A stretch of 64,000 nucleotides of DNA from an uncultured delta proteobacterium (lineage in GTDB: Bacteria > Desulfobacterota > Binatia > DP-6), in assembly GCA_963815115.1 (NCBI GenBank), contig CAWFFN010000008.1:768001-832000 (forward strand), given 5' to 3'. Below, one piece after another: positions 2,690 to 41,458 of the stretch (position 1 is its first letter; every line of letters starts with the position of its first letter). The notes beneath the pieces were generated by a model. It did not search any database. It saw only the letters and a list, made by a program, of their open reading frames with translations, and was not told the DNA's origin. The position numbers were made by a program, and so were the translations under genes.

Positions 2690-2907
2690 ACTCTTGAGCG
2701 GCGGAATCAGTAGGTCAATGTCCTCGACTGAGCATCGGTCAGTCTCCATCCAGTCACCATGCCCATGCCTCCCGGTGCCTGCCGATGGATGAGCGCGACG
2801 CGTAACCTCCGAATCTTCCGAGATACGGCCACCCGCCGGAACCTCCCGGCAACCTCCTGCGTCCTTTCGTAATCAGTAGGTCGCCGGTTCGACTCCGGCG
2901 GGTGGCT
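2690..2907 (+). mobile_element. type A att-like end: conserved arm plus tRNA-Thr(CGT) 3' half (core 2866-2907)
   Basis: TTCGTAA TCAGT AGGTC GCCGG TTCGACT CCGGC GGGTGGC T = anticodon loop, T-arm and 3' acceptor strand; no D-arm; arm shared with 12119-12338 and 28600-28816. Confidence 0.85.
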
Positions 2908-3236
2908 GTTGGGATTCTGCAGACTTACTGCCTGATGCTGCTAAGAAGGTGGCGGGCTGTGGCACCAAGCGCTGGCCGTGCGAGAATCGGTCAGGCGCAA
3001 TTTCCGTTGACATCGCGCCCCGCGGTGACTGACCGACAAGCGCTCGACCTCCTGGGCGGAGAGGTCCTTCCAGCCGTTCCGTGCCTCGACGGCCTCGCGG
3101 AGGATGTCGAGGTACTCGTCGCGGCTGCGCCCGTACGACCCTGATGTCTGATCGGCGTCTCGTCCTCCTGGCGGGGCCGACCGTGATCCTCCAGCAGCGC
3201 GGTCAGGGTCATCGCCATTGCCCAGACCGCGACTAC

Positions 3237-3304
3237 GCCCGACGACCAGGCGATCAGCGGCGGCCCAGCGTGGCCGGCCGTCCGCTGCACCGGCTTGTGC
3301 TGGC
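3237..3304 (-). other. degenerate integron attC-like site
   Basis: Minus strand GCCAGCAC-AAGCCG-GTGCAGCGG-A-CGGCC...GGCCG-CCGCTGAT...GTCGGGC: paired L boxes with two extrahelical bases; both R boxes deviate from consensus. Confidence 0.5.
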
Positions 3305-3890
3305 GCCGGCCTCGCTGCTGCCGGATCACCGGGGCGAGCGCCCGGAGAGCCTCGTTGACCGATGCGCCATCGGGGAAACATCAAGGACGTCAGGATCGAC
3401 GACGACGACGTTCGTTCCCTGGACGATCCGTCACCGCTGGCGCCAGGTAGTTCTCTACCCGCCACTCCGTCGTCGTCCCCCAACGGGGGAGCGACTTGGT
3501 CGCCAGTCGTCACGACAAGGGCCACCGCTCACGTCGATCGGCTGAACCCTGCCCCTTGCGCCCTACCGCCTGCTGCGCGAGGAGAGACGAGGGAGCAGGG
3601 CGAAGCCCGATACACAGACGGTACCCGGTGCACCTGAGCCCGAGACCGACGCCCTCCCAGGCGCGCCATCACCAGGCCGGATCGAGCACGGGTTCGTCTC
3701 GACGTTCCTCGCCCGCTGGGGGGAGGCGGTCGTGCCCCGATCATCGAGCGCGCGGGCGTGTCGCCGGATCTGATCACGCCCCGCAGCCGCATCGCGGCAG
3801 CCTTGACGTGTCGGTGACCCCGCCGAAGCGCCCGCCTTGCCCTCGGCTGGTGTGACGAGTCTCTCCACGCACACTCATCGGCGTACCACA

Positions 3891-3933
3891 ATCGGCGGGC
3901 TCACATCGGCGGGCTCACAATCGGCGGGCTCAC
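3891..3933 (+). repeat. three tandem copies of ATCGGCGGGCTCAC
   Basis: Copies at 3891-3904, 3905-3918 and 3920-3933. Confidence 0.9.
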
Positions 3934-4019
3934 CGCTTGCGCGCCGCCGGCGTCATGGGCTACCCGCTACTGCTCTGGCAGCGCACTGACGACTCACCGG
4001 GGCGAGGGAGAGCGGACGC

Positions 4020-6452
4020 ATGGAGGCGGCGGATGGAATCGGCGGCGGGCAAGTGGGCAGCGCGACGGGAGCCAGGAGGCGCCGAAAGCGCGCGGCCGCG
4101 GCGAAGCTGACGCGAACCCACCCGCCGGCCGACGCGACACTCGAACAGTGGCAGGTAGCCCTCCGGCGGCAGTTCGGCCGGGCGCAGCCCTTTGGCCTGG
4201 AGAACGTCGGGCCGCACCCCGTCGTCTCCGAGTTTCGGGTCACGAACCCCGCGAGTCGCCAAACCTACCGCGTGGCGATCCGTGGCGTGCAACCGGGCGA
4301 CAACTTCTGCTCCTGCCCGGACTTTGCGACCAACCAGCTCGGCACCTGCAAGCACGTCGAGTTCACGCTCGCACGGCTCGAGCGCCAGCCCGGTGGTAGG
4401 CGGGCGCTTCGCGAGCGGGTTCGGCCGCCCTACAGCGAGGTGTTCCTCTCCTACGGAGTCCGCCGCACGGTCCGGTTCCGTCCGGGAGCCGACGCGCCCA
4501 CCGCCCTGGTTCGGCTCGCGGCACGCCACTTCGACCAGGACGGCGTGCTGCGGCCGGGCGCTTTCGCAACGCTCGGGGAGTTCGTCGCGAAAGCATCCCG
4601 CCTCGATCGCGGCCTCCGGTGCTACGAAGATGCACTCGCGTTCGTGGCCGAGGTCCGCGACGCCCGGCAGCGGCGCGATCGACTCGCTCGCGCGTTCCCG
4701 AGCGGGGCGGACAGCCCGGCCTTCGACGACCTCGTGGGCGTCCCCCTCTATCCGTACCAGCGCGAGGGGGCTCTCTTCGCGGCCCGCGCCGGGCGTTGCC
4801 TCATCGGGGACGAGATGGGGCTCGGCAAGACCGTGCAGGCGATCGCCGCTGTCGAGATCCTGGCGCGCCTCTTCGGCGTCGAGCGCGTGCTCGTCGTCTG
4901 CCCCACGTCGCTCAAGCACCAGTGGGAGCGGGAGATCGCGCGGTTCACCCAGCGGGTGGCCTTGGTCGTGGGAGGTGCCCTCGGCGAGCGGCATGCACAG
5001 TTCCTCGCCGACGGCTTCTACAAGATCACCAACTACGACGCCGTCCATCGCGACCTCGAGGCGATCCGGCGCTGGGCGCCCGACGTGGCGATCCTCGACG
5101 AGGCCCAGCGCATCAAGAACTGGACGACGCGCGCCGCCAGGAGCGTCAAGCAGATCATGTCGCCGTATGCGATCATCCTCACGGGTACCCCGCTGGAGAA
5201 CCGACTCCAGGAGCTGGTCTCGATCGTCGAGTTCATCGACCGGCACCGACTCGGGCCGACGTACCGCTTCCTCCACGACCACCAGCTCGTCGACGAGAGT
5301 GGCCGGGTGGTCGGCTACCGCGATCTCGACCGGATCGGCCGCACGCTGGCGCCGATCCTCATCCGGCGGCGCAAGGCGGATGTCCTGTCGCAGCTCCCAG
5401 GGCGCCTCGAGAAGCGGCTCGTCCTGCCGATGACGACCCAGCAGCTCGCGCACCACGAGGAGAACCGCGAGATCGTGGCCCGCATCGTTCACAAGTGGCG
5501 GCGCTACCGATTCCTGTCCGAGGTGGACCAGCGGCGACTGATGGTCGCGCTGCAGCGCATGCGGATGGCGTGCGACAGCACGTACCTGCTCGACGGGACC
5601 ACCGACTTCGGCCCGAAGCCCGACGAGGCCGCGACGCTGCTCGAGGAGATCTTCGAGGAGCCCGAGACCAAGGTCGTCGTCTTCAGCCAGTGGCTCCGCA
5701 TGCACGAGCTGCTGGTGCGCCGGTTCGAGCGGCGGCAGTGGGACCACGTTCTGTTCCACGGCGGCGTCGACGGCCCGCGGCGCGCAGCGCTGGTCGACCG
5801 ATTCCGCGACGACCCGCGCTGCCGGGCCTTCCTCTCCACCGACGCGGGCGGCGTGGGGCTCAACCTGCAGCACGCGTCGGTAGTCCTCAACATGGACCTG
5901 CCATGGAATCCCGCGGTCCTCGAACAGCGGATCGGGCGGGTACATCGGCTCGGGCAGACACGGCCGGTGCGCGTCGTACACTTCATCGCGCAGGGGACGA
6001 TCGAGGAGGGAATGCTCGCGCGGCTCGGCTTCAAGCGGTCGCTGTTCGCCGGCGTCCTCGATGGCGGCGAGCGCGAGGTCTTCCTCGGCGGCAGCCGGCT
6101 GACCCGCTTCATGGAGAGCGTCGAGCAAGCGACAGCGCAGCCTGGCGCCGAGGAGGCCGGGGCGGTTGACGCAGCTGACGGGCGCCGTGCCGGCGATCCG
6201 CTCCCGGCGGCGTCGCTCGTCGATGCCCTCGGGGGACTGCTTCGGAGCAGTCTCGCGCTCCTCGAGCAGATGAATACGGCGCCCCGAAGCGGGCGCGATG
6301 GCGGGTCGCCAGGTGCTACGCGGCCAGGCATCGAGGTGAGGCGGGACGCGGAGACGGGTGAGGCCGAGGTGACGATCCGGCTCGGGGACGCGGAGAAGGT
6401 CCATCGCCTGTTGCGGTCCGCCGGCGAGCTGCTCGAGGGTCTCCGGAGATAG
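4020..6452 (+). CDS. SWIM zinc-finger SNF2-family helicase/ATPase
   Basis: CSCPDF...CKH SWIM motif; DEMGLGKT, DEAQ, LTGTPLEN, STDAGGVGLNL, QRIGRVHR. Confidence 0.93.
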   Translation: MEAADGIGGGQVGSATGARRRRKRAAAAKLTRTHPPADATLEQWQVALRRQFGRAQPFGLENVGPHPVVSEFRVTNPASRQTYRVAIRGVQPGDNFCSCPDFATNQLGTCKHVEFTLARLERQPGGRRALRERVRPPYSEVFLSYGVRRTVRFRPGADAPTALVRLAARHFDQDGVLRPGAFATLGEFVAKASRLDRGLRCYEDALAFVAEVRDARQRRDRLARAFPSGADSPAFDDLVGVPLYPYQREGALFAARAGRCLIGDEMGLGKTVQAIAAVEILARLFGVERVLVVCPTSLKHQWEREIARFTQRVALVVGGALGERHAQFLADGFYKITNYDAVHRDLEAIRRWAPDVAILDEAQRIKNWTTRAARSVKQIMSPYAIILTGTPLENRLQELVSIVEFIDRHRLGPTYRFLHDHQLVDESGRVVGYRDLDRIGRTLAPILIRRRKADVLSQLPGRLEKRLVLPMTTQQLAHHEENREIVARIVHKWRRYRFLSEVDQRRLMVALQRMRMACDSTYLLDGTTDFGPKPDEAATLLEEIFEEPETKVVVFSQWLRMHELLVRRFERRQWDHVLFHGGVDGPRRAALVDRFRDDPRCRAFLSTDAGGVGLNLQHASVVLNMDLPWNPAVLEQRIGRVHRLGQTRPVRVVHFIAQGTIEEGMLARLGFKRSLFAGVLDGGEREVFLGGSRLTRFMESVEQATAQPGAEEAGAVDAADGRRAGDPLPAASLVDALGGLLRSSLALLEQMNTAPRSGRDGGSPGATRPGIEVRRDAETGEAEVTIRLGDAEKVHRLLRSAGELLEGLRR

Positions 6453-6511
6453 CCCGTGGCTACGATGTCGCCGGCAGGTTCGCTCTCGTGCAGTACACCG
6501 AGCCGCCAGGC

Positions 6512-8920
6512 TCAGCTTCGGCCTTCATCCCTCGGTACCCCGTACCCGAGCACCCGGTAGCCGCGTAGTCGCTTCTCGAACATGCGGGCGAGCATCGGTA
6601 CCCGATGATCGACATAGTCGTAGATCCTCACCTCGGTCTTCTGCGGGTGGAGCCGGCTGAGCCGGCCTGCGTACTGGACGACCGTCCCCCTCCACGCGAT
6701 GGGCAAAGCCAGGAAGAGAGTGTCCAGGCGCGCGTCGTCCAGGCCTTCGCCGACGTAACGACCGGTCGCGAGCACGAGCCGCTCCTCGTGGTCTGGGATC
6801 AGCGCAAGACGGTCGAGAGCTGCACGACGCTCCCCCGCTCGGATTCCACCCTGCAGCACGACGACGTGACGTGCGAAGCCTCGAACGTGGTTCGCCAGAT
6901 ATTCCAGATGGTCCCTGCGCTCCGTCAACACGATGGGGGAACGGCCCTCGTCGACCGCGGCGATGATATCGTTGAGGATCAGCTCGTTCCGCGCTTTGTC
7001 ACCTGCGAGCGCAGCATACAGACCCTGGATGCCCGCGTCGGCGTCGATGGCCTCTGCCTCGAAGTCTGTCTGCCGGCAGATCAGGTGGTGCGCGAACGGC
7101 CGGCGGACTGCGTCGCTGCGTGGATCGACCATGTATCGTACCGGGCCACACTGCATGTGGACGATCGGCTGCTGGCCGTCCCGTCGGTAGGGCGTCGCGG
7201 TCAGCCCGACCACGAAGCGTGCCCTCACCTCGGCGAGCACCCGCTCGAACGACACGGCCGGGAGATGGTGGCATTCGTCGACGATCACGTGGCCGTAGCC
7301 GGCGGTCACTTCATCGACATCGCCGTCGCGGACCAGGCTTTGGATCATGGCCACGTCGACCCATCCCGTCACGCAGCGTTTCCCGCCCCCGATCTGGCCG
7401 ATCGCCTTCGCGTCCACGCCGAAGAACAGCGCGAGCTGCGTCCGCCACTGATCGAGCAAGGGCTTGCGGTGGACCAGCACCAGCGTGCTGCGCCCGCGAG
7501 CCGCGGTGAGATAGGTACCCACGACCGTCTTGCCTGTCCCCGGCGGCGCGACGAGCACGCCGGTATCGTGTGTCAGGAGTTGCTTGACGGCGTCCTGCTG
7601 GACCAGCGTTAGCTCACCGTGAAAGCTGGTCTCGATCGCTCGACCCTCGACCCGCCGGTCGTCCACGCGAAGCGTCGCACCATGGCTCCCGAGGAGCTCG
7701 GCCAGGTCTTCGCCACAGCCACGCGGCAGGGCGAGATGCTGTGGCAGATCCTCAGCGCAAGCGATCACCCGCGGCGTGAGCGCCGTCGACAGGCGTGCCT
7801 TCTGCCGCCGGTAAAACTCCGGGTTCTGGAAGGCCGCGAGGCGCTTGATCTGATTCAGGAGGGCCGACGGCAGGCGAGCCTTCTCGACGAAGAGACGCTG
7901 CGCGAGGACGACTCGAACCTCGGCCGGGACCGGCTCTGTGAGGTGTACACCCCTCGATCGTCGCGGGGACGGGATCACCCAGGGCTGCTCGGCGTCCCCG
8001 TCATCGGTCTGACTGATCTGGAGCCCGATGATCTCGCCACGCCGCGTACCCTGCTCTGCAACCGCCTCGACTGCGCCAGGGTTGATCGGGCGGACACTCG
8101 CAAGGAACGCCCATTGGTCGGGGAACGGCACGAGCGCGTCGTCGACGAACACCGTGTTCCCGCGCTGCCTCGCCCCGTGCTGAAGAGGCAGCGCGATCAG
8201 ATTCCCGAACCCTCCGCGTGGAAGCGTGTCCTGGTTCGGGAAGAGCCGATCGTACGACTCGAGAGACAGCTCATGGCGACGAGCCATCGTTTCCGTAATC
8301 AGGTAGCAGCCCATCTTGCGGGCGGTGCTCGCGAGAACCGGCGCCGCGAAGAAGAACCAGACGTGTGCCCCCTCGCCAGAGCGCGAACGCTCGACGGCAA
8401 CCGGCAAGCTCATGGCACGGCACGTGTCGACGAACGCGGCGACGTCGTCTGCCCAGGACTGCTTGTCGAAATCGGCAACGAGCAGCCAACAACGGCCGTC
8501 TTCGAGCATCGGATAGACGCCGACCACGTGGCGTCCCTGGAGATGATCCAACACCGCCTGGTCACTCACCGGGATGAAGGCCTGGTTCGGACAGTCCCCG
8601 CACTTGACGCGAGGCTTCTCGCACACGCCGCGCACCCATTCATTCGCGCAGGCGGGGGCGTAGCCATGACGGCCGGTGCGGAGGTTATCCCAGTACCGCG
8701 GGTAGACGTCATCGCGGCCGCGGAACAACCTTCGGAACAGGGCAACCTTCTCGGCGGACGTGGCGGGCGACGCCGCCGCGGCGATCGACGCAGTGCCGTT
8801 GCCCAGGGAAGCTTCGAGCGCCCGAAGGCGTTCACGCGTCTGAGCGCGCTCCTGCTCGAGCCGGTCGAGCACCGCCTGCTGTCGCGCAATCTCGCCGAGA
8901 ATGGTCTCGCGATCGCCCAC
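6512..8920 (-). CDS. TOTE-type archaeo-eukaryotic primase domain fused to SF2 DEAD/DEAH helicase
   Basis: FRGRDDVY, ADFD, ERSRSGEGAHVW, YDRLFPNQD, GNLIALPLQ; APPGTGKT, DECHH, TATP, QYAGRLSR; GTG start with GAGGAGG RBS. Confidence 0.88.
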   Translation of the reverse strand: MGDRETILGEIARQQAVLDRLEQERAQTRERLRALEASLGNGTASIAAAASPATSAEKVALFRRLFRGRDDVYPRYWDNLRTGRHGYAPACANEWVRGVCEKPRVKCGDCPNQAFIPVSDQAVLDHLQGRHVVGVYPMLEDGRCWLLVADFDKQSWADDVAAFVDTCRAMSLPVAVERSRSGEGAHVWFFFAAPVLASTARKMGCYLITETMARRHELSLESYDRLFPNQDTLPRGGFGNLIALPLQHGARQRGNTVFVDDALVPFPDQWAFLASVRPINPGAVEAVAEQGTRRGEIIGLQISQTDDGDAEQPWVIPSPRRSRGVHLTEPVPAEVRVVLAQRLFVEKARLPSALLNQIKRLAAFQNPEFYRRQKARLSTALTPRVIACAEDLPQHLALPRGCGEDLAELLGSHGATLRVDDRRVEGRAIETSFHGELTLVQQDAVKQLLTHDTGVLVAPPGTGKTVVGTYLTAARGRSTLVLVHRKPLLDQWRTQLALFFGVDAKAIGQIGGGKRCVTGWVDVAMIQSLVRDGDVDEVTAGYGHVIVDECHHLPAVSFERVLAEVRARFVVGLTATPYRRDGQQPIVHMQCGPVRYMVDPRSDAVRRPFAHHLICRQTDFEAEAIDADAGIQGLYAALAGDKARNELILNDIIAAVDEGRSPIVLTERRDHLEYLANHVRGFARHVVVLQGGIRAGERRAALDRLALIPDHEERLVLATGRYVGEGLDDARLDTLFLALPIAWRGTVVQYAGRLSRLHPQKTEVRIYDYVDHRVPMLARMFEKRLRGYRVLGYGVPRDEGRS

Positions 8921-9671
8921 TGCCTCCTCGCACAGCCCGCTACACCCGGCCCCTGGTGGCGGAGTGCACACTAGCGCCCTACGCGTTCGGAGAGAAGGTC
9001 ACCCTCCGCTCCTCCACCTCTCGGGAGGCGCCCCGCAACTCGAGGAAGAGGTAGGTTTCCCACCTCGCCCAAGAGTCGCGGCGCCTTCCCGGGTCGGGTG
9101 TCGCCCTGTCGGCAGATGACGCACGTCATTGGCTTCGTCCTTGTCGACGGCCCCCCAGGATCCCGACGAGGAAGCCGGGGCTGAAGGGGATGACGTCATC
9201 GCTCCTCCTTCGTAACGGCCCCCTCGAGCAGGGTCCGGCACCCAGAGCAAGGGCCACGGCTAGACGGGATGAGGGAGCCGAGCTTCGCAGGCTGTGAACC
9301 CGGCTCAAGCTCCCAAGACACTCGACGACGCGGGCACGCTTCGAATGCTGCTCCGCCGGCGCTCCACCGTCCACCATGCCGGGGTGGGACCAAAACGCTG
9401 GATGACTGCCAAGCACCTCATGCTCCGGAACCGCAGCCCAGCCGAGTAGTCCACGAGGGCGGGACCTAGCCTGGTGAAGGCGGGGGGTCAGATGGTGTTC
9501 CGATTCCCGAGAAAGGGCTGCTGCCTCCGGGCCGTTTTCCGGGGTGTCAATGGACGAACGGAGCCGGCTCGCGATTTGCACCGGCTAGCCGCCAAAGGGT
9601 GCGACGCGTCCGATGTCCGCCATTGCTGCGATGAATGCCGTCGGAAACGGATTTCAGGGGGGCACGCTGGT

Positions 9672-10520
9672 ATGAGCGCCCTCGTCGAGGACGGCTCGCG
9701 CATCAGCCCGACCGCGCACTACACCGCGGACGTCTGGGTGCGCTCGGGTCTCTCGGATCCTGCTCTCTCCACCCGGCTCGGCGCGGTGCTCCATGCCGCG
9801 CTGGCACCGCTGAACCAGACCTACGGCCGCCTCTCGGGGCGGCCGAACCTCGACGCGATGCTCGTGGCGCGTCATCGCGCGCTCGACCGTCTCCTCGAGC
9901 GCGAGATCGCGGCGGGACGCGTCGGGCAGGTGATCGAGATCGCGGCCGGGCTCGCGGGTCGTGGCTACCGTTTCGCGAGACGCTTCCCCGCCTTGCGCTA
10001 CATCGAGACCGACCTGGCCGGCATGGCGGCGTACAAGCGCCGCGCGCTCGACGAGGCCGGGTTGCGCGGACCGAATCACGAGGTGCGGCCGCTCGACGCG
10101 CTCGCGGGCGACGGGCCGGCGAGCCTCGGAGCCGTCGCGGCCGAGCTCGTGGCGTCGCGCGGGCTCGCGATCATCACCGAAGGTCTTCTCAGCTACCTCG
10201 CCCGCGACGCCGTCCTGACGCTCTGGCGACGCGTCGCCGCGACGATCCGCGGCTTCGCGCACGGCTTCTACCTCTCCGACCTCCATCTTGCCTCCGACGT
10301 CGACGGGATGTGGATCCCCGAGCTGTTTCGCGTGGGGCTCGAGCTCTTCGCCCGCGGGCCGGTACGCTATCACTTCGCCTCGGCCGACGAGACGATGGCG
10401 GAGCTCCGCGCCGCGGGTTTCCGCGACGCACGTCTCTACTATCCGTCCGAGGTCGTGCCTCCCGATCGACCCGGCCGCGAGCCGGCGCACGTTATTCGCG
10501 TGCTGGCAGCGACGACTTAA
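9672..10520 (+). CDS. class I SAM-dependent methyltransferase (LCM-like)
   Basis: ISPTAHYT, VIEIAAGL, YIETDL, IITEGLLSYL. Confidence 0.85.
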   Translation: MSALVEDGSRISPTAHYTADVWVRSGLSDPALSTRLGAVLHAALAPLNQTYGRLSGRPNLDAMLVARHRALDRLLEREIAAGRVGQVIEIAAGLAGRGYRFARRFPALRYIETDLAGMAAYKRRALDEAGLRGPNHEVRPLDALAGDGPASLGAVAAELVASRGLAIITEGLLSYLARDAVLTLWRRVAATIRGFAHGFYLSDLHLASDVDGMWIPELFRVGLELFARGPVRYHFASADETMAELRAAGFRDARLYYPSEVVPPDRPGREPAHVIRVLAATT

Positions 10521-10569
10521 AGGAGGACGAGACATCCCGCCCGCCTTGCCCCGTACTCTCCAGATAACG

Positions 10570-10795
10570 CGTGACCCCAACTTCGAGAACGGATCGTGCA
10601 CCAACGCGATCGCGTCGTGCGCCGACATCGCAACCTGCCTCGCTGCGTCGGCGAGTCCGCGGTGGACCAGGCGATCACGCTCTCCTACGCGATGGTCGAA
10701 CCAGGATCAGTTCGGCATGAAATCGACTCTGAACAAGTGCCAGGGCGCGATCGGCAAGGAGACGACGAAGTTTCTGCAGCGAGCGATCTCGACCA
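10570..10795 (+). pseudogene. fragment of Cys-rich secreted repeat protein
   Basis: Frameshifted pieces CADIATCL / RCVGESAVDQAITLSY / LNKCQGAIGKETTKF; no start or stop context. Confidence 0.45.
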
Positions 10796-12118
10796 TGAGG
10801 CCGCGGCGTTGCCGACCCTCGGCCTCCGCGCGTCGGTGCTGTAGCACCACGGTCACGCGAACTGCGGCAAGAAGAGACGCGAACGTGGAGCGCGTGGGTG
10901 GACCTGCCCCGCGAGGGTTGACGAACGCCTCGGAGGCGGACGTTCGCTGGGATCCCTACCTCCGGATCGAGTTCCTCTCCGAGCTGTGCGGCGTCACGCG
11001 GCGATGTTGAGGGAGGCCGTGGCCAAGGCCTTCTCGCGGAGTTGGATCGCCGGGCTCATGACGGTGTAGCCGAGCTCACTGCGGCATCCACCGCACGTCG
11101 GCGGCTCGTACGGGTTGGCCGTGAGGCGCGCGCCGCACATGGGGCATGGCCGCATCGTCGTCGTCATGGCACGTCTCCGAAATCGGTCTCGGCGCCGTCG
11201 AAGTCGTCGCCGGGCCGTCCTTCCGCTGTCCTCAGTGACTCCCCTCGCTGCTCGACACCCTCGATTACACAGACGATACGAAGGTTGGTGTCGTGGCGCG
11301 GTCTGATTGCGGCGTTCTTATCCATGCGATTTTGCAACTCGTTCCGCCTACCCAAGGCGCGACGATCTACGCTCCAGCGGCCTGCGGCCGTTCGCCGCAT
11401 CGACGGTGCGTGCTGAGGAAGAGCGAACGGCGTGCCAACGAGCTATCGCAACTGAATGCCCACCGTTAGGTGATCAGGGCCTGGCTTGCCTGCGGGCCAA
11501 ACGTAGCTGGGAGCGACGAGATCGTGAGCGTAGGGCGCACGTGGATTCGACGCCCGCCGAGGAGATGAGCGGCTCGGGTGCCGGCGTGGTCCCTCCTGCC
11601 TGCCCCAAAATCAGCTAACGGATCGGGTACCCTAGGGACGCCCAGGCCCGTACGGTGTGAATCGTGGCGGCCGGCGTACAGGTTGCGCGGAGCCAATTGA
11701 AGAAACTTCAGCCGACCGGGCGCCCGTTCCCGGCCGGGAAACACGCTCTGCCGCAATACCGTCACCCTGGGGCGAAGGCTACGCGAACGCGCGCGGGACG
11801 GAGGCGGTCCGCAGTCGAGCCTGATGCGACGGTTCTACCTTGGGGTGGCCGTGACTCGCCATGACTGGAGAAACCTATCGCGCCGGGTTGGTTGAGCAGG
11901 CGGGTCACAGCGAAAGACGGCCCACGGCGCTGCGGCTCCGAATTCGCGTCTCGGCTCGCCAGCCCCCCCGCCCGCTTCGCGGCAACGCTATGACGATTCT
12001 GCTGTTCGCAGCGTCGTGCGTTGTCATCGACTAGGAGGAGTCGCGAGGTGTCCCGCGGCGCCCGCACCGGCGACACCGGACGGAGCCGTAACAGCTCAAC
12101 GCGCCACGGGATTTCAAA

Positions 12119-12338
12119 AGCCACCCGCCGGAGTCGAACCGGCGACCTACTAATTACGAAAGGACGCAGGAGGTTGCCGGCAGGTTCCGGCGGGTGCTCG
12201 TCTCTCGGAAGATTCAGGGGTTACGCGTTGGCGCTGACCCACCAGGAGGCACCGGCAGGCATGGGCATGGTGACTGGATGGAGACTGACCGATGCCTTGG
12301 TGAGGACAGTGACCTATTGATTCTCCACCCGCGGTGAG
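12119..12338 (-). mobile_element. type A att-like end, inverted copy (core 12119-12160)
   Basis: Reverse complement aligns to 2690-2907, including CAGTCTCCATCCAGTCACCATGCCCATGCC and the tRNA-Thr 3' half; more diverged arm. Confidence 0.85.
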
Positions 12339-12444
12339 CGCGCGAGGCGAAGAGGATGGCGCGCTGCTTGGGTTGCCGGGGTGACCACTCACAGCCCCCT
12401 TTGGCGTCGCCCCAATAGTGAAGAACATGCGGCCAGGATCGGCC

Positions 12445-12729
12445 TCAGGCCGCGCGCCGGACCCGGATGTAGGCTTCCAGCCCTGCGGCTTCTACGAGCC
12501 GCAGCACGCGATCGATCGTGACCTTCTGCAGGCTCCCTGAGAGAATGCCCGTGACGGCGCTTCGGGAAAGGCCGGAGTGCGCGGCCAGCTCAGCATGCGT
12601 GAGGCCTCGTCGATCGACCTCTCGCAGGACAGCCGCGATGAGCTGTGCCTTGAGCACTGCCTCGAGACCGCGGCTCTTCGGGATGCCGAGGAGCTTTGCC
12701 AGGCGGTCGGCGGACGTCTTCTTGCTCAT
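12445..12729 (-). CDS. XRE-family HTH antitoxin (HigA-like)
   Basis: GLTHAELAAHSGLSRSAVTGILSG HTH; ATGA overlap with the upstream toxin. Confidence 0.85.
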   Translation of the reverse strand: MSKKTSADRLAKLLGIPKSRGLEAVLKAQLIAAVLREVDRRGLTHAELAAHSGLSRSAVTGILSGSLQKVTIDRVLRLVEAAGLEAYIRVRRAA

Positions 12730-13043
12730 TGCGTCAGCTCCTTCAGACGCTTTCGCGCCAGATCGATGTGGCGTCCAGGGGTTGTCTGCGTGGTCTTCTT
12801 GAAGGTGTGTAGGACATGTACCGCTCCACGACGAATGAGCGCGTAGATCACCCGGTAGTGACCGGAACGATCGCGAAGCCGTAGCTCATGGACGGCCCGG
12901 CCAATGCTGGGCATGGCACGTGACAGCGGCATGGCGAGCATGAGGCCAGCGTCGAGGCGGGCGAGCGCATCTGCGAGATCGCTACGCACATCCATCGGGA
13001 ATGCATCAAGCTCTCGGCGACAAGCCGGGACGATGATGATCAC
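12726..13043 (-). CDS. RelE/ParE-family Gp49-like (HigB-type) toxin
   Basis: MPLSRAM, VHELRLRD, YRVIY, VLHTFKKTTQTT. Confidence 0.88.
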   Translation of the reverse strand: MIIIVPACRRELDAFPMDVRSDLADALARLDAGLMLAMPLSRAMPSIGRAVHELRLRDRSGHYRVIYALIRRGAVHVLHTFKKTTQTTPGRHIDLARKRLKELTQ

Positions 13044-13051
13044 ATGCTAGG

Positions 13052-13067
13052 GTCTCATAAATGAGAC
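13052..13067. promoter_or_regulatory. palindromic operator upstream of the higBA-like operon
   Basis: GTCTCAT-AA-ATGAGAC perfect inverted repeat just upstream of the toxin start. Confidence 0.7.
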
Positions 13068-13165
13068 GTGAGGTCCAGTCTGCGGGTGGTCGCGCGCGAG
13101 TGGGAGGCCGGACCTTCCCAGGGGACCGGCGCGTGTCAATGAGATGAGAGAGGGGCATGGTGAAA

Positions 13166-14308
13166 TTACTGTCCCGCCGCGACGTCGAGCTCCGCGAGCA
13201 GGAGGTCGTCCGCAGCCACGAGCATCGAGACTGGGGGGGTACCTGGACCTTGGACCGGCTCCGTTGCGGGCGTCTGCGGGGCTCTGAGCGCGACGTTTCT
13301 TCGCGATCGCGGGCTCGGAACGCCATTGCGGTCGAGGGCCGGCGGATTGATCCACACTTCCGTCGGGGGCTGTTGCACCCGCGGTGTCTTCCCCTTGAAG
13401 CGTTCGGGATGAGCCGCGAATGCCGCCGCGAGCGTTTCCCCCCGTCGTGCCACGATCGCCAGGGCCGTCCCGCTGTGCACGCTCACCGGCGTCAGGAACC
13501 CGATCCCGCTGTGCCGATGCTCTTCGTTGTACCAGGGGAAGAATCGCCGCAGGAATCCCAGGGCGTCCTGCTGCGACCCGAATCGCTCGGGAAACTCCGG
13601 ACGCGACTTCAACGTGCGAAACTGCGACTCCGAAAACGGATTGTCGTTGCTGGTGTACGGTCGCGTCAGGCTCCGCGTGATCGACAGGTCGGCCAACAGC
13701 TGGCCCACCGTCTTCGACGTCATCGCCGGCCCGCGGTCGGAGTGCAGCGTCAGGACCGCCTCCGCGATCCCCTCCTTCTCGCAGCTCTCCTTGATCAAGC
13801 GGCGCGCCAACGTCGCCGACTCTCGATCCGCCAAGAGCCACCCCACCACGTAGCGGCTGAAGATGTCGAGCAGCACGTAGAGGTAGAAGTACGTCCACTT
13901 CGCCGGCCCCTTGAGCTTCGTGATGTCCCACGACCACACCTGGTTCGGTCCCGTCGCCAGGAGCTCGGGCCGCGTCGCCACCGGGTGGCGCAGCTGGTTG
14001 CGCCGCTCGCGGACTTCCCCGTGCCGATCGAGAATCCGGTACATCGTCCGCAGCGAGCAGTGGTAGGTTCCCTCCTCGAGCAACGTCGCGTACACCTCCG
14101 CCGGAGCCTGGTCGATGAACCGTTCCGAATGCAGCACGTCGAGAACGGCAGCCTCCTCGACCTCGGACAATGCCAGCGGCGGCCGCGATCGAACCGCCGT
14201 CTCCGAACATGGTCGCCGCCACCGGTAAAAACTTGCCGGGGCCACGCCCAACGCCCCACAGGCGGCCTGGACCCCCACGGCGTCGGCCAACGTCTGCGCC
14301 GTCGCCAT
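13166..14308 (-). CDS. IS3 transposase OrfB (DDE integrase core)
   Basis: PNQVWSWDIT, LDIFSRYVVGW, LHSDRG, NDNPFSES; in the -1 frame relative to orfA. Confidence 0.92.
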   Translation of the reverse strand: MATAQTLADAVGVQAACGALGVAPASFYRWRRPCSETAVRSRPPLALSEVEEAAVLDVLHSERFIDQAPAEVYATLLEEGTYHCSLRTMYRILDRHGEVRERRNQLRHPVATRPELLATGPNQVWSWDITKLKGPAKWTYFYLYVLLDIFSRYVVGWLLADRESATLARRLIKESCEKEGIAEAVLTLHSDRGPAMTSKTVGQLLADLSITRSLTRPYTSNDNPFSESQFRTLKSRPEFPERFGSQQDALGFLRRFFPWYNEEHRHSGIGFLTPVSVHSGTALAIVARRGETLAAAFAAHPERFKGKTPRVQQPPTEVWINPPALDRNGVPSPRSRRNVALRAPQTPATEPVQGPGTPPVSMLVAADDLLLAELDVAAGQ

Positions 14309-14787
14309 CAGCTCCCGACCTCCTCGTCGCTCGGCGGCAGCCCCAGCAACTGTGAGACTTTTTTTTGAACGTCGATGATCACGTGCGCCTTGCGCAGCTC
14401 CTCCCGCAGCCGCGCGTTCTCCCGCTCCATCCCGGCGAGTCGCTTCGCCAACGGATGCGCCACCGCCTTGCGCCCGCGCGCGTGCCCCGCCAGCCCGACC
14501 AACGCCCCCGCCTCGCGCTGCTGACGCCACACGCTCAGATGCGACGTGTAGAGCCCCTCGCGTCGCAGCAGCGCCCCGATCTCCCCCGGCTCGCGACACC
14601 CGTCGGCCTCGGCCAGGAGCTGTCGCTTGTACTCGGCCGTGAACCGGCGCCGCTGCGCCTTCGCCGGAACCTCCGGATTCTTGCGGCCCGTCGGCGCCGG
14701 CGCGCCCGCAACTTCAGTCGCCCTACGGGCTCCTTCCGTTCCGGGCGCGCTTCCTGATCCCCCGCCATCCCTCACCTTCACTCCCAC
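14308..14787 (-). CDS. IS3 transposase OrfA (HTH plus leucine zipper)
   Basis: RRRFTAEYK, IGALLRREGLY, ENARLREEL...DVQKKV; true start uncertain. Confidence 0.88.
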   Translation of the reverse strand: MGVKVRDGGGSGSAPGTEGARRATEVAGAPAPTGRKNPEVPAKAQRRRFTAEYKRQLLAEADGCREPGEIGALLRREGLYTSHLSVWRQQREAGALVGLAGHARGRKAVAHPLAKRLAGMERENARLREELRKAHVIIDVQKKVSQLLGLPPSDEEVGS

Positions 14788-15973
14788 CTCGCTCGCCTTC
14801 CTCCGTCCCCTCGTACACTAAATTCGGATCGCCTCCTCTCTCACGTTCATTGGCACAGGGGGGCTGTCGTATCAGGTTCCCGAGTCGCCACAGGCCTTTC
14901 GCGCCGTCGTTCATGAAGCTCGCGCCTGCATTCGCGACGATGAAGTGCATGCATCCCGCCCGCGCGATCGGCGCCACCTGTTCGCAGATCTCCCGCGGAC
15001 TGCCGGCATAGATGACCGTCTCGATGATGGCCGCCGTCATCGTCGCGGCTGCCTGGTCCACGTGCTCCCGGCCCACCCACGTCGGTACCAGATCCGGGAA
15101 CCCACCGTGCGATGCCCCCAGCGGATGGCTCCGCCCATGCGCTCGCCACACGCTCGCCGGCGCCCCCAGCGCCATCGCCGCGCACACGAGGCTCCGGAGC
15201 GCCCGTTCGAGCACCTGCTCCCGGCTCTCCCCGAGCGCGACCAGCATCGTGTGCGTCGCCGTGAAGCGCTCGAGGCTCCGTCCCGCCTCCTCGGCGGCGC
15301 GGCGGATCACTCCGAGCCGCTTTGCGTACTCCTCACCCGATACGCGCTGCCCCGGCAGCCAGCCATCGCCGAAGCGGCCCGCGAGACGCAGCATGCGCGG
15401 ATAGTGCGCGGCGACGAAGAGCCGCGGCGGCTTCCGGCCATACAACGGCAGGCCGAACACGGCGTCGCGCAGCGTCCAGAACCGCCCCGAGTAACTGACT
15501 GGCCGCCCGCCGCTCGCCCACAGCAGCCGAATGATCGTCAGCGCCTCCTCGAGCCGCTCGACGTTCTGCCCGTACGGCAGCCCGTACGGCTCGGTGTTCT
15601 CCCGGATGCCGTTGCCGATGCCGAGGATCGCGCGCCCCCGGGAGATGTGGTCGAGCGTCACGAACGACTGTGCAAGCGACATCGGGTGCCGGCGGATGCT
15701 CTCCGTGACCGACGTGCCGACGTCGACGCGCCGAATCCGCTTCGCGGTGAGCGCCAGCACCTGGAGCGGATCGAAGAGAGCGTCGATCGACGGCACGATC
15801 CGCGCCGCGGCCGTGATGCCCGGCCGCCAGACCTCCGGGGGCGTGAAGCTCATGAAGTGGTCGGGTACCCAGATCGCGGACGCGCCCATCAGCCGTGCCA
15901 GGCGCATATTGATCCGCGAGACCCAGAGTGGGTACACGCAGGCGTCTTGGTAGCCGACCGTCACGCGCGCCAT
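14723..15973 (-). CDS. LLM-class flavin/F420-dependent oxidoreductase, 3' end runs into IS3
   Basis: WVPDH, DP...L, RRHP..LAQ, SRGRAILGIG.G, AGRFGDGW; native sequence ends at 14858 and the ORF reads on into the IS end. Confidence 0.85.
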   Translation of the reverse strand: MARVTVGYQDACVYPLWVSRINMRLARLMGASAIWVPDHFMSFTPPEVWRPGITAAARIVPSIDALFDPLQVLALTAKRIRRVDVGTSVTESIRRHPMSLAQSFVTLDHISRGRAILGIGNGIRENTEPYGLPYGQNVERLEEALTIIRLLWASGGRPVSYSGRFWTLRDAVFGLPLYGRKPPRLFVAAHYPRMLRLAGRFGDGWLPGQRVSGEEYAKRLGVIRRAAEEAGRSLERFTATHTMLVALGESREQVLERALRSLVCAAMALGAPASVWRAHGRSHPLGASHGGFPDLVPTWVGREHVDQAAATMTAAIIETVIYAGSPREICEQVAPIARAGCMHFIVANAGASFMNDGAKGLWRLGNLIRQPPCANERERGGDPNLVYEGTEEGERGGSEGEGWRGIRKRARNGRSP

Positions 15974-16035
15974 CGTTCGTCCATCGCCGGCCCGCATAGC
16001 ATGCCGGCGGCGCCGACCCGCTGCAGGCCCCCGCT

Positions 16036-16475
16036 GTGACCTGGCGGGTGATCCAGTGGGCGACCGGCAACGTCGGCCGCGCGGCCGTTCAGGGCATCGT
16101 TTCCCATCCGGAGCTGGAGCTCGTCGGCGCCTGGGTGCAGCGCGGACAAGGCGGGACGCGACGTCGGCGAGCTGTGTGGCGTCGGTCCGCTCGGCGTCCG
16201 GGCCACGGCCGACGTCGACGAGATTTTGACGCTGCGGGCGGACTGCGTCGTCTACGCGCCCCTTCTGCCGCAGTTCGACGAGGTGGTCCGCCTGCTCGAG
16301 TCGGGAAAGAACGTTGTGACGCCCGTAGGCTGGTTCTATCCAGGGCGCTCGGCGGGCGTTGCGGAGCTGGAGGCCGCCTGCCGGACGGGCGGCGTGTCAC
16401 TGCACGGCACCGGCATTCATCCCGGTGGGATCACGGAGCTCTTGCCGCTGACGCTCTCGGCGCTGTCTTGCCATC
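16036..16475 (+). pseudogene. dihydrodipicolinate reductase-like NAD(P)-binding protein, frameshifted 5' fragment
   Basis: RVIQWATGNVG then, in another frame, ADCVVYAP, LLESGKNVV, SLHGTGIHPG; truncated. Confidence 0.8.
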
Positions 16476-16480
16476 CGCCC

Positions 16481-17030: not shown

Positions 17031-17083
17031 CCGTGGCGACCGGCGGTCGTGGCGGAACCCAGTTTGCTGCTAGGTTCGTCGGC

Positions 17084-28063: not shown

Positions 28064-28360
28064 ATGGCAACCGCTGCAACCAAGGTCGGACCGAAGTTCC
28101 AGGTCACCATCCCGAAGAACGTCCGGGATGCCGTCGGGCTGAAGGTGGGCGACCTGGTCGAGGCCTCCGTGGGGCGCGAGGGCATCGTCCTCCGCCAGAA
28201 GGTTCTCATCGACAAGCCAGTGAGCCTGGCAAGGCAGCTCGAGGAATCGGAAGCGGCGGTGAAGGCGGGGCGGGTCCTCGGACCGTTCAAGTCGGCCGGT
28301 ACCGCAATGAGGGCCGTGAAAGCCCATGCGCGCCGTGCTGACCGAACCGTTCGCCGCTAA
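28064..28360 (+). CDS. AbrB/MazE/SpoVT-family antitoxin (copy 2)
   Basis: Four amino-acid differences from copy 1. Confidence 0.9.
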   Translation: MATAATKVGPKFQVTIPKNVRDAVGLKVGDLVEASVGREGIVLRQKVLIDKPVSLARQLEESEAAVKAGRVLGPFKSAGTAMRAVKAHARRADRTVRR

Positions 28361-28571
28361 CCTGATCGCGAGCCCGCCGGAGGTCCAGAAGGCTTTCGGC
28401 AAGCAGCTCACGAATCTCCTCCGCGACCTGCGCCACCCTTCCCTGCGAGCGAAGAAGTACGAGGAACGCACGGGCCTCTGGCAAGCCCGGATCAACGACG
28501 ACTGGCGGATGTACTTCACCATCGAGGGCGACGTCTACGTGCTGCGAGCGATCACGCCTCACCCGAAGTAG
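28326..28571 (+). CDS. RelE/ParE-superfamily toxin (copy 2)
   Basis: Protein identical to copy 1; only synonymous changes seen. Confidence 0.8.
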   Translation: MRAVLTEPFAANLIASPPEVQKAFGKQLTNLLRDLRHPSLRAKKYEERTGLWQARINDDWRMYFTIEGDVYVLRAITPHPK

Positions 28572-28599: not shown

Positions 28600-28816
28600 C
28601 TCTCGAGCGGCGGAATCAGTAGGTCAGTGTCCTCGACTGAGCATCGGTCAGTCTCCATCCAGTCACCATGCCCATGCCTCCCGGTGCCTGCCGATGGATG
28701 AGCGCGACGCGTAACCTCCGAATCTTCCGAGACACGGCCACCCGCCGGAACCTCCCGGCAACCTCCTGCGTCCTTTCGTAATTAGTAGCTCGCCGGTTCG
28801 ACTCCGGCGGGTGGCT
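28600..28816 (+). mobile_element. type A att-like end (core 28775-28816)
   Basis: Near-identical to 2690-2907. Confidence 0.85.
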
Positions 28817-29234
28817 CTAGAATTCTCCGTCTTTTGTGGGGCTTGCACGACCCGCACCGGGATAGTGGAGGTTTCATCGCACCGGTGTGTGCCTATGGTG
28901 TGCCTCTCTCCACAGCGCGCGCTTCAGAGTTGTCGTCGCAGCCTGGTTCGAGGGCCAACCGATGGCAGAACAGTCGACCCAGCCGCAGCCCAATGACCTT
29001 CGTGAGACATTCCATGAGGCGTTGACCGACTTCTCTCGGTTCGCTCAGAAGCGCCAGACGGCGAAGGCGCAAGCAGCGTTGCACCGGCTGTTCACAACGC
29101 TCATCGACGTCGACCGAGATGGCGACGTGGTCGGCTCGCGGATCACTGGTGGAAGCAAGAATGCATCCTCCCGCATGAACCAGAAGGGCTTCAGGGATGC
29201 GGGCACGGCTGCGCGCTCGGCCAGGTGCAGGGCG

Positions 29235-29374
29235 GCACGTCGCTGAACGCGATTCAGCAGCTCCTCGGGCATAGCTCGCTCGCCACGACGAGCGTCTACC
29301 TCCGCAACATCGCCCCCGCGGCGGCCGTTGCCGAGGCGACGGCCAAGACGGCGCACCTGACGGTTGAGCCGTAG
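29235..29374 (+). pseudogene. tyrosine recombinase C-terminal remnant
   Basis: Frame absent from the ORF track reads LNAIQQLLGHSSLATTSVYL (box II LGH...Y). Confidence 0.8.
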
Positions 29375-29540
29375 CCGGCGGCACAGGGAAGACGTTTCCC
29401 GGGCTCAGCACATCGTCGCGGGCCGCGATGCAGGTCGCGAGAGGAACTCTCGCACCGCGACACCGCGCCCGGCATGCACGTTCGCGACGCGTCCTGACCT
29501 TCCCCACCACCTCCGGTTGATGGCATGCTGGGGCCGCGCG

Positions 29541-30072
29541 ATGGCACGGGACCCGCGAGACGTGCTGCGCCGGGCAGCGTTCGGCACGATCCTCTTCGTT
29601 CTGCTCGCGCCAGGTACCGTGGTCGTCCTCGGGCCGTGGCTCCTCACCGGCTGGCGCTTCGCGCCGCCGTTGCTCGGGTGGAGCATGACGCGCTGGCTCG
29701 GGGCCGTGCTCCTTGTGCTCGCATTGCCGCTCTTTGCCGCATTCAACCTGCGCTTCGTGATCGAGGGGCCACGGGACGCCTGCGCCGATCGCCCCGACCG
29801 AACTTCTCGTCGTGGGAGGACCATTCCGCTGGGTGCGCAACCCGGGCTACGTCTCGGTAATCGCCCTCCTGGTAGGACAGGCATTGCTCTTCGCGAGCCC
29901 CGGCCTCTTCGGGTATGCGGCCGTCGTCGCACTCGCCTTTCACCTCTTCGTCGTGCTCTACGAGGAGCCGACATTGCGACGGCAGTTCGGCGCGGAGTAC
30001 GAGACGTACTGCCGCGCCGTACCGCGGTGGATTCCGCGGCTCCGGCCCGCAGCGAAGCCACCACCCTGCTGA
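29541..30072 (+). pseudogene. isoprenylcysteine carboxylmethyltransferase/PEMT-like membrane protein, frameshifted
   Basis: LVVGGPFRWVRNPGY, YEEPTLRRQFG.EY..Y...VPRW; frameshift near 29770. Confidence 0.8.
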
Positions 30073-39529: not shown

Positions 39530-39593
39530 ACTTTTCAGGATGAGAGTCGGCGCGGTCCCGGTGACCAGCTAACTGGCGTTTTGCAGCGGGCGG

Positions 39594-40316
39594 TCAGCCA
39601 CGCGGGACAACGTAGAACGCGACGACGACATAGTGTGCGACCGCTGCTGCGATCACGAGCGCATGGAACACCTCGTGATAGCCGAACACTTCGGGCGCGG
39701 GGTCCGGACGTCTGAGGGCGTAGACTGCGGCACCCGCCGAGTAGAACACGCCGCCCAGCACGATCAGGCCGGTGGCCGTCGCGCCGAGCTGCGAGACGAG
39801 CTCGGGGAAGGCCACGACGGCTACCCAGCCGAGCGAGATGTACACGATGGCGCTGAACCATTTCGGGGCGTCGATCCAGACCATGTTCAGCGCCATTCCC
39901 AGGAGCGCCCCGCCCCACACCACGGCGAGTACGACGAGCGCGAGCGTCCCCGGGAGTACCAGTACGCCGAACGGTGTGTACGTGCCGGCGATCAGCAGGA
40001 AGATCATCGAGTGGTCGAGCCGCCGCATCCACCGACGTACGGGAACCGACCACGTCACTTCATTGTAGAGCGCGCTTACGCCGAATAGTGCCGAGAGGCT
40101 GAGGGCATAGACCATCGCTGCGGCGACGGCCCTCTTGGTGGGGGCTACGAGGATCAGAGCGACGCCCGTAAACAGGGAGGCGAAGAAGGCCCATCGGTGC
40201 GATACGCCTCGAAGCCGCGGCTTCACGAGCCGCGGCTGGCCGCCGATGGGCTCGGGGGCTTCAGGGTCACTCGCTGCGCGGCTCGGGAGAGGCCGGAAGT
40301 AGTGCGAGCCCTTCAC
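39594..40316 (-). CDS. hemolysin III / PAQR family membrane protein
   Basis: KPRLRGVSH, RRLDHSMIFLLIAGTYTP, FGYHEVFH. Confidence 0.92.
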   Translation of the reverse strand: MKGSHYFRPLPSRAASDPEAPEPIGGQPRLVKPRLRGVSHRWAFFASLFTGVALILVAPTKRAVAAAMVYALSLSALFGVSALYNEVTWSVPVRRWMRRLDHSMIFLLIAGTYTPFGVLVLPGTLALVVLAVVWGGALLGMALNMVWIDAPKWFSAIVYISLGWVAVVAFPELVSQLGATATGLIVLGGVFYSAGAAVYALRRPDPAPEVFGYHEVFHALVIAAAVAHYVVVAFYVVPRG

Positions 40317-40604
40317 CTCGATGCTCGACTGACGCGTATCACGTCGTTCTTCGCGGTAGGGCGAGCCTCTGCGCGAACGAGGAAGAGGCTCGCCGCACGA
40401 GGAGAGCGGCAGGAAGTCGAGGCATGAAAGCGCCTCCTATGGCATCACTTCTGCGCTTCGCAATCCGGTCGGTATCCGAAGGGCCAGCGGCCGATATCCC
40501 ATTGACGAGGTCGTGAGCCCCGGCGCGTAGCTTGGCCGGTGTCGACGCGCCGGCCGAACTCGCCGGCGTGCAAGTGAGCGTGAGCATGCTTGTTGATGGC
40601 GTTG

Positions 40605-40830
40605 CGCTCACGCCTCAAGCATCGCCGCGGTCCGATGAAGGCCATCGTCGCGGTGGCCACCTCCATGCTCACGGCCGGCTACTACATGCTGCGCGACGAC
40701 CAAGAGTATCACGACCTCGGGGCCGCCCGCTTCCAGCGCGGTGACCACGACCGCCTCGTCGCCGTGCTCACCCGCCGCCTCCACCACCTCGGCTACGAGG
40801 TCATCCCCCCCGCCCCACCGCATGACGCCG
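40605..40830 (+). mobile_element. IS110 transposase C-terminal remnant
   Basis: RRGPMKAIVAVATSML...YHDLG...RRLHHLGYEV. Confidence 0.8.
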
Positions 40831-41210
40831 CGTACGGAGCGAGTTGCTTGGTAGCCCACCGCCCTTCCGTAACGACGGGAGCCTGAGAGGAACAGCCGCA
40901 AGGTCCGCAGGCTGTTCCGCGATCTCTGGAGCAATGAGGACGCCGGCACGAACCGCGTCGCGGCGAGCGTGATGCAGGGCGAGCAGGTGTGGCTCGAGGC
41001 AGGGGCCATGGACATCGGCCTCACGCCGGAGGCCTTCAAGACGCGCTCGCTACTGGCGCAGCGTCGGGAGAGTTCCGAGAGAGCGGCCGCGGACGCGTCG
41101 TGACACCTCTACTACCAGGGCCTCGACGCGGACCAGGCCGCCCACGTCGAGGTACCTCCGTCACGCTCGCCGACGACGAATCACGAAGCGGAGGTGAGCC
41201 CGGCGGGCAA

Positions 41211-41458
41211 TGCGTCGGAACGTACACTGGCCACATCCGGTCTCGGCATCGGGGGTACCGACAGCGGTAGAGGCACTGGAGGTCGGTCTCTGCTACCACG
41301 CTGCTACCACTCTGCCCCAAACCAGGACGCACGAGGCGAAAGTGTGGTCAGTCGGGATCCTCGGTTTTCTGCTGGGATAGCTCTTCCTCGTGCGGCGGAG
41401 TTTCGCGCCGATCGGAGTTCGCAATCAGAGGTCGCCGGTTCGACTCCGGCGGGTGGCT
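41211..41458 (+). mobile_element. type B att-like end plus tRNA-Thr 3' half (core 41418-41458)
   Basis: TTCGCAATCAGAGGTCGCCGGTTCGACTCCGGCGGGTGGCT; arm homologous to 27596-27809. Confidence 0.82.

Follow-up and report, generated by a model that had tools for sequence, protein, structure and literature searches.

Here, we describe an accessory region of ~131 kb in the genome of an uncultured delta proteobacterium that is very probably a tandem array of attachment (att) sites formed at a single tRNA-Thr(CGT) gene. The window analyzed is a stretch of 64,000 nucleotides (assembly GCA_963815115.1, contig CAWFFN010000008.1, positions 768,001 to 832,000; G000:C8:768001-832000, G000 being the source genome), in which a first-pass annotation had recognized five tRNA-Thr(CGT) half-genes, each preceded by one of two conserved sequences, arm A or arm B. 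In the lambda-type model, integration at a tRNA restores the gene and displaces older DNA outward. Overall, we favor, with moderate confidence, the explanation that successive tyrosine-integrase insertions at one tRNA anticodon loop produced the array and that the integrases were later lost, mainly by deletion.

Eight junctions downstream of an intact tRNA-Thr(CGT)

The parent tRNA-Thr(CGT), the absence of which had been named in advance as grounds for abandoning the att-site interpretation, is present and intact at C8:696366-696439 (+), 71.6 kb upstream of the window. The 113 kb downstream of this gene contain eight Thr half-tRNA junctions (J1 to J8, Table 1), six with arm A and two with arm B, and seven of the eight share the strand of the tRNA, with J5 inverted. 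All five cores originally reported in the window, at 2866, 12160, 27810, 28775 and 41418, align to tRNA-Thr(CGT). In BLAST searches, the four long cores align from the first base of the 7-nt anticodon loop (tRNA position 32), and the truncated core of J6 likewise begins with the anticodon loop, so that the reported start of all five at this loop is upheld. The chance expectation for a 42-mer with at most 3 mismatches in 128 kb is ~6e-15. As also stated earlier, the window itself holds no intact tRNA (0 ARAGORN tRNA genes). No further tRNA-Thr(CGT) fragments were found elsewhere in G000, in a genome-wide fragment list that is incomplete because the tRNA filter of the search discarded 25 of 61 ARAGORN calls, some of them real tRNAs. 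Across 25 genomes of the family, many of them fragmented assemblies, a 20-nt core pattern matched seven times in G000 and no more than twice in any other genome.

At the far end, an SEC-C/DUF7309 gene at ~C8:826 kb, 89% identical to the gene preceding arm B in G001, is still island material, and a conserved distal flank that matches the DNA downstream of the G013 Thr fragment resumes near window position 60.2 kb (C8:828 kb). With island material reaching at least C8:826 kb and conserved flank from 828 kb, the array comes to ~131 kb. Its GC content is 0.686, compared with 0.714 and 0.704 in two control regions, and its coding density, obtained with a purpose-built hexamer gene caller, is 0.66 compared with 0.91 and 0.80 in the same regions.

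Three of the eight G000 fragments are truncated, with cuts at 8, 20 and 40 nt; among metagenomic junctions, the L050 fragment is cut at 20 nt and that of L045 at 29 nt. The L045 fragment stops just after the T-loop and, in this single case, could reflect crossover by a T-loop-type integrase. In four soil sequencing runs, loose ends of contigs cluster at window positions 2866 and 2899-2909.

Two conserved arms confined to the array

Pairwise identity bears out the assignment of arm A to three window cores (2866, 12160 and 28775) and of arm B to two (27810 and 41418). The copies of arm A in the window are 87-99% identical to one another, and 14 of the 15 arm-A pairs in G000 are only 84-91% identical. 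Dispersal of the arms across the genome, another outcome that had been named beforehand as contradicting an att-site origin, was not seen: all six genome matches of arm A, and both matches of the core-proximal 158 bp of arm B, lie inside the array. Arm A is likely the P arm of attR, and arm B likely the P arm of a second family. With its core removed, arm A had no match at E ≤ 0.001 in 24 family genomes, G006 included, and its spread is therefore known only from G006, where it was detected with the core attached, and from metagenomes. The left edge of arm A carries a core-like half-site 162 bp before the loop that is also present in G006, which we take to resemble an IHF box, and which may be an accessory or decoy site.

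The arm-A junction set comprises 23 loci that are not independent of each other, namely, the 6 in G000 and 17 metagenomic junctions on short contigs; 3 of the 23 are too short to cover the position of a left repeat pair.

Integrase remnants in the array and intact elements in relatives

No match to PF00589 at E ≤ 0.001 was found in the window or in the array, compared with 18 matches elsewhere in G000; the sole large serine recombinase of this genome is encoded on C9. The earlier statement that the window contains no intact integrase stands; searches using integrases of relatives as queries revealed two broken ones, at 29192-29374 (+) and 47852-47319 (-). The latter is 82% and 66% identical to a G002 integrase and 49-64% identical to those of G010 and G018, with a PF13356 match at E 1.5e-16. 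Repeated use of one site by at least two element families had been proposed; the repeated use stands, and the number of integrase families involved rises to at least four (A, B, C and D).

Intact tyrosine-integrase elements that cross over at the same anticodon loop occur in the relatives G006, G010 and G018. In G010 and G018, these are single elements with a P4-like integrase (family D) beside a displaced Thr fragment. In G006, tRNA-Thr(CGT) is followed at +89 by a repeat pair and then by an integrase (430 aa, PF00589) in convergent orientation, helix-turn-helix (HTH) genes and a TerL-like gene, and the far end consists of an arm-A homologue (73% identity over 215 bp including the core) with the displaced fragment 10.2 kb away, followed by a second, shorter integrase. 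An 11-bp-period repeat motif common to arm A and the left end of the G006 element ties arm A to the G006 integrase family. The intact G006 element (L020:3680-13918) is satellite-like; its products comprise the integrase, two HTH proteins, a 562-aa protein without a Pfam match and a TerL ATPase domain.

No family-A integrase was found in G000, where the best hits, all at other loci, reach 30-36% identity. The G006 integrase matched 4 of 201 genomes of the class at E ≤ 1e-40, and a profile of the family-A clade matched 1 of 25 genomes of the order; the clade is represented in soil metagenomes by proteins 61-89% identical to the G006 integrase. Integrase, replication and packaging modules are absent from the G000 modules, unlike the arm-A element of G006 with its integrase and TerL ATPase domain.

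On the other side of the parent gene, ~0.9 kb upstream of the tRNA at C8:695345-695470, there are arm-B-type repeat pairs, inverted and 79% identical to the family-B left end of L046. They are followed by an antitoxin-PIN pair, and a remnant of this antitoxin, in inverted orientation, is found at window 59816-59991, close to where the array ends distally.

Sequences behind the cores

The downstream flanks of the window cores had been described as unrelated. They indeed show no mutual match, yet they are not random: several flanks are left arms of other families, among them that of the core at 28775, a family-C left arm with an integrase tail. The same holds in metagenomes, where an arm-B-type pair and a convergent integrase stand directly behind the core in L046, another repeat pair with a convergent 422-aa integrase (family E) occupies this position in L047, L049 and L055, and a family-C pair follows the core in L060, the flank of which resembles that downstream of J5. 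Left arms of other families behind the cores are the expected chimeric internal site, consisting of a new right arm, the displaced fragment and an older left arm.

A different arrangement is found at J3 (C8:746675 onward), where the loop is followed not by a tRNA 3' half but by a 12-bp inverted repeat around a 7-bp spacer and then by an AlpA-like remnant (recognized by eye). This J3-type sequence is shared by 5 of the 17 metagenome loci (L051, L053, L056, L059 and L061), and the J3-type junctions combine with three different left flanks. Modules ending in arm A and lacking an integrase also occur in other samples (2.8 kb in L057 and ~1.5 kb in L053).

An HNH gene was considered as a native flank copied after each junction and was rejected, given that the tRNA-adjacent HNH gene of G013 fits another array gene better (65%, compared with 45% to the junction remnants). 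Apparent hits of the HNH search on the arms were an artefact of open reading frame (ORF) read-through into the tRNA and arm.

Cargo, rearrangements and other elements in the array

The Pfam content of the array includes catabolic enzymes, a carotenoid cluster, helicases, HNH nucleases, toxin-antitoxin genes and fragments of insertion sequences (IS); no conjugation families were detected among the 105 of 127 called array proteins covered by the scan. Cargo is shared with the Thr islands of G001, G002, G006, G013 and G018, which supports the original view of the region as an accretion of cargo. That view is to be amended in two respects: the array has about twice the span of the window, and scars of tRNA-Gly(CCC) and IS elements contribute to it as well.

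Toxin-antitoxin genes adjoin several arms (Table 1). The putative toxin at 2155-2662 has weak YoeB/HigB matches (E 0.2-0.7), and its second copy lies in the J6-J7 module, which measures just 965 bp in total. The pair at 12445-13043 has a counterpart of 94% identity in the Thr island of G001. The carotenoid cluster (C8:757-768 kb), cargo of the J3-J4 interval with host-like GC content, comprises genes for HMG-CoA reductase, phytoene synthase, a desaturase-like oxidoreductase, polyprenyl synthetase and a B12-binding MerR regulator. Window positions 4020-8920 encode an SNF2 helicase and an AEP-TOTE primase-helicase, the gene for the latter being ~70% identical to DNA in the G006 Thr array.

Several blocks of the array are 91-99.9% identical to parts of other islands in this genome, those at Ala(GGC), tmRNA, Lys(CTT) and Gly(GCC), reflecting recent inter-island exchange, repeated uptake or assembly effects. 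Two of these, 9374-11870 and 16755-17524, are on opposite strands here and on the same strand, 200 bp apart, in the Ala(GGC) island on C5. Re-inverting 9374-16754 would realign both blocks and return J5 to the orientation of the tRNA; the inverted state of J5 therefore probably reflects a later inversion of 7.4 kb, the breakpoints of which are not clean.

Three 3' halves of tRNA-Gly(CCC) lie in the Thr array in the same orientation (window 190-232, C8:714764-714809 and C8:747481-747523), and others are located at C8:15943, C5:1226229 and on C12. The parent tRNA-Gly(CCC) terminates contig C9, overlapping the start of C12. On C7, 5' halves of tRNA-Gly(GCC) and tRNA-Glu(TTC) were found at 457609-457649 and 690618-690659, respectively, suggesting elements that displace the 5' side.

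Table 1. Features of the tRNA-Thr(CGT) array (window coordinates unless a contig is given)
Feature	Position	Strand	Remarks
J1	C8:708115		outside window; fused into helicase tail
J2	C8:733925		outside window
J3	C8:746675		outside window; tRNA match cut after 8 nt
tRNA-Gly(CCC) 3' half from anticodon loop	190-232	+	97.7% over 43 nt to C9 tRNA-Gly(CCC), positions 31-73
Blocks matching other tRNA gene (tDNA) islands	359-1182, 1197-1703, 9374-11870, 16755-17524, 29497-30054; C8:715857-718812		
AbrB/MazE-type antitoxin and small putative RelE/YoeB-like toxin	2155-2662	+	adjoins arm A; PF04014 and TIGR01439 over cut-off
Arm A (likely P arm)	2704-2865	+	162 bp; left-edge core-like half-site; 11-bp-period repeat pair; inverted tRNA T-arm copy near right end
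J4	2866-2907 (C8:770866)	+	tRNA-Thr(CGT) 3' half, positions 32-73, 42/42 identical
Probable inversion, ~7.4 kb	9374-16754		would have turned J5 round
J5	12119-12160 (C8:780160)	-	inverted tRNA-Thr 3' half, 41/42 (97.6%)
Arm A, inverted copy	12161-12323	-	87% to 2704-2865
Gp49/HTH_37 toxin-antitoxin pair	12445-13043	-	upstream of inverted arm A; PF05973, PF13744
Arm B (likely P arm)	27592-27809	+	80.5% to 41206-41417; found also in G001, G004 and partly G003
J6	27810-27829 (C8:795810)	+	tRNA-Thr fragment cut after 20 nt, 19/20 identical
Second copy, AbrB-type antitoxin and putative toxin	28064-28571	+	94% over 828 bp to 2080-2907 copy
Arm A	28613-28774	+	98.8% to 2704-2865
J7	28775-28817 (C8:796775)	+	tRNA-Thr 3' half, 95.3% over 43 nt, two substitutions
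Family-C left (P') arm repeat pair	28887-28905	+	motif pair as in G016 and L060
C-terminal tyrosine integrase remnant, family C	29192-29374	+	52% over 40 aa to G016 integrase fragment; PF00589 E 4.7e-4, below cut-off
Arm B	41206-41417	+	88% to arm preceding G001 Thr fragment
J8	41418-41459 (C8:809418)	+	last tRNA-Thr 3' half, 95.3%, 1-nt deletion, loop altered
Partial third copy of arm-A-linked toxin gene	46619-46795	+	88.7% over 177 bp; without arm or core
Broken P4-like integrase, family D	47319-47867	-	frameshift and internal deletion; repeat pair 47850-47867
SEC-C/DUF7309 cargo gene	55492-57976	-	88.9% over 2495 bp to gene directly before arm B in G001 Thr island

Origin of the array

Under the favored explanation, each new element would enter at the anticodon loop of the tRNA, regenerate the tRNA and move older DNA outward. 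The resulting junction would combine three pieces, namely, the right (P) arm of the newcomer, the tRNA 3' half that it displaced and the left (P') arm of the previous occupant. Arm A would be the P arm of a family whose intact member is the satellite-like element of G006, arm B would come from a second family, and families C and D would be visible as left arms or integrase remnants. The integrase-bearing left ends would then have been removed, less certainly, mainly by deletions beginning in or just behind the displaced fragment, and such deletions would have fixed the cargo in place. Toxin-antitoxin pairs beside the arms would favor retention of the right ends, and the tRNA-Gly(CCC) scars and IS elements would be additions to the array. 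Deletion is probably the main route of integrase loss, a view that we favor because of the three truncated fragments, the fusion of J1 into a helicase tail and the many gene pieces.

Several observations weigh against this account. Neither excision nor a circular form was observed, and ordinary tRNA genes in other species also give rise to loose contig ends before position 2866. A single genome connects arm A with the G006 integrase, and all five directly oriented arm-A-ended modules of G000 lack any trace of a family-A integrase. Furthermore, a cognate family-A left pair was found at none of the 23 arm-A junctions, three of them too short to cover it and the loci not independent, and deletion alone leaves unexplained why arm A is in no case accompanied by the cognate left arm, which families B, C and E often retain.

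This missing left arm is what would be expected if a visiting family-A helper, once integrated at the tRNA, excised together with the distal arm-A junction, carried the neighboring module into a new host, integrated there and later excised alone, a possibility that we consider unlikely overall but that survives best among the alternatives. Modules deposited in this manner should start behind the tRNA 3' end and end in arm A and core, without a left arm or integrase, and the left arm is missing also where the left neighbor is not arm A (tRNA-J1, J6-J7 and L057). The absence of the family-A integrase from G000, while its clade is present in soil metagenomes, the conservation of the arm motifs, with arm identity of 84-99%, and the cargo that the Thr islands of different strains have in common all point the same way; the same idea was put forward for Prochlorococcus islands (bioRxiv 10.1101/2020.12.28.424599), and cis-mobilization of cis-mobilizable elements (CIMEs) has been reviewed (PMC5704250). 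On the other hand, no module was observed moving as a unit, the truncated fragments require deletion anyway, and four scans of viral contigs found no relative of arm A or of its integrase. In addition, an arm-A junction together with the cognate left arm would amount to a complete attP, which may simply be unstable, and this instability could remove A-after-A junctions. An extension of the helper scenario, which we put forward still more tentatively, is that the arm-A modules are 'attR-only' single-site cassettes ferried by a satellite-type helper, with the tRNA acting like an integron entry site served by a non-resident integrase and the cargo moving among Thr, Ala, Lys and tmRNA islands.

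It is far less probable that arm A is a two-ended, integron-like site, with the left half-site serving as a second regular crossover point that swaps cargo. At L048, L050 and L051, the left half-site of arm A adjoins an inverted tRNA-Gly(CCC) 3' half, with the joint at the anticodon loop, as this reading would have it, but the three loci have near-identical arms and look like one event. Likewise, a single X5 contig (record 21) carries two arm-A copies in head-to-tail order, the right core of one abutting the left half-site of the other, but the joint is one base out of register. In a test that included 20 of the 23 arms, with three incomplete arms left out and flank labels assigned by the analyst, the first 30 columns of arm A vary with the left flank outside the arm, at an identity equaled in 0 of 1000 shuffles of the labels, and the remaining columns track neither flank (456 and 733 of 1000 shuffles). 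The left half-site is thus not a frequent exchange point, and crossovers there are rare. At L051, an integrase follows the inverted tRNA-Gly(CCC) half.

We assign even less weight to multiplication of one or two junctions by segmental duplication or by mis-assembly of strain variants. The arms of J4 and J7 are 98.8% identical and their flanks 94% identical over 828 bp, several duplicated blocks of 92-99.9% identity exist elsewhere in the genome, and the assembly comes from an uncultured organism; nevertheless, the other 14 arm-A pairs are much more divergent, loose ends with the junction sequences of J1 and J3 turn up again in the independent runs X5 and X1, and the J3 type is found in more than one metagenome locus, as detailed above. 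Least probable of all, the arms and core could be a miniature inverted-repeat transposable element (MITE) or a tRNA-derived dispersed repeat, self-moving and unrelated to integrase crossover, for which the sharp ends of arm A, its inverted tRNA T-arm copy and the partial copies on C5 and C9 of a gene end located upstream of arm B might be cited, but all the arm copies are confined to a single array downstream of the cognate tRNA, tRNA identity begins at the loop each time, and a homologous arm closes the intact integrase element of G006.

Relation to known systems

By the features used for site class A arrays, the region has an intact tDNA and cognate 3' fragments on the same replicon, with identity starting from the anticodon loop; its foreign character and the break in synteny are apparent from the lower GC content and coding density, the cargo shared with relatives, and the flank that resumes as in G013. 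In the Islander survey (PMC4383910), 2083 of 3919 islands have an anticodon-loop crossover (site class A), and tandem tDNA islands resemble the present array in combining a regenerated tRNA with displaced 3' fragments and anticodon-loop crossover. The tandem rule given there calls for an integrase in each member, and 2168 genomes yielded 4 tandems with at least three members; with no PF00589 match and only two remnants, the array would fail this per-member filter.

The ssrA arrays of Dehalococcoides, as described by McMurdie et al. 2011 (PMC3146451), are similar in that one tDNA is followed by many of its displaced fragments, which each bear conserved sequence on the element side; many direct repeats occur within ~100 kb, and 15 islands without an integration module are read as possible CIMEs. 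They differ in having, according to the same description, a serine recombinase, T-loop crossover, one module family and 16 islands with intact modules, whereas the array described here involves tyrosine integrases of at least four families, anticodon-loop crossover and no intact integrase. Loss of integration and transfer genes, tandem stacking and chimeric internal sites generated by unrelated integrases are likewise features of CIMEs and accretion as outlined in PMC5704250. Here too, no PF00589 match and, among the 105 of 127 array proteins scanned, no conjugation family were found, but CIMEs by definition keep attL and attR, whereas the arm-A modules keep the right arm only, with no cognate left arm.

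The tycheposon islands of Prochlorococcus (bioRxiv 10.1101/2020.12.28.424599) are also tRNA-anchored, with scattered partial tRNAs, fragmented integrases and members resembling phage-inducible chromosomal islands (PICI-like), and the authors propose transient elements that bring flanking DNA and then excise again. The host and, probably, the integrase lineage are different, and in our case the junctions are recognizable by long conserved P arms, and one tRNA serves several families. Unlike the single-gene cassettes of integrons and of clusters of attC sites lacking integron-integrases (CALIN), the modules are 1-26 kb in size and have tRNA-derived cores. Neither this array nor any att array in this lineage was described in the literature searched, excluding supplements.

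The array adds an example of known island growth, not a new mechanism. It constitutes an unusually readable growth record of a 131-kb accessory region in an uncultured soil lineage, with at least four integrase families at one tRNA and several junctions at which both arms can be assigned. The one-sided survival of arm A, together with the intact cognate element of G006, makes the proposed, little-tested route in which elements bring flanking DNA and excise again testable by a reporter.

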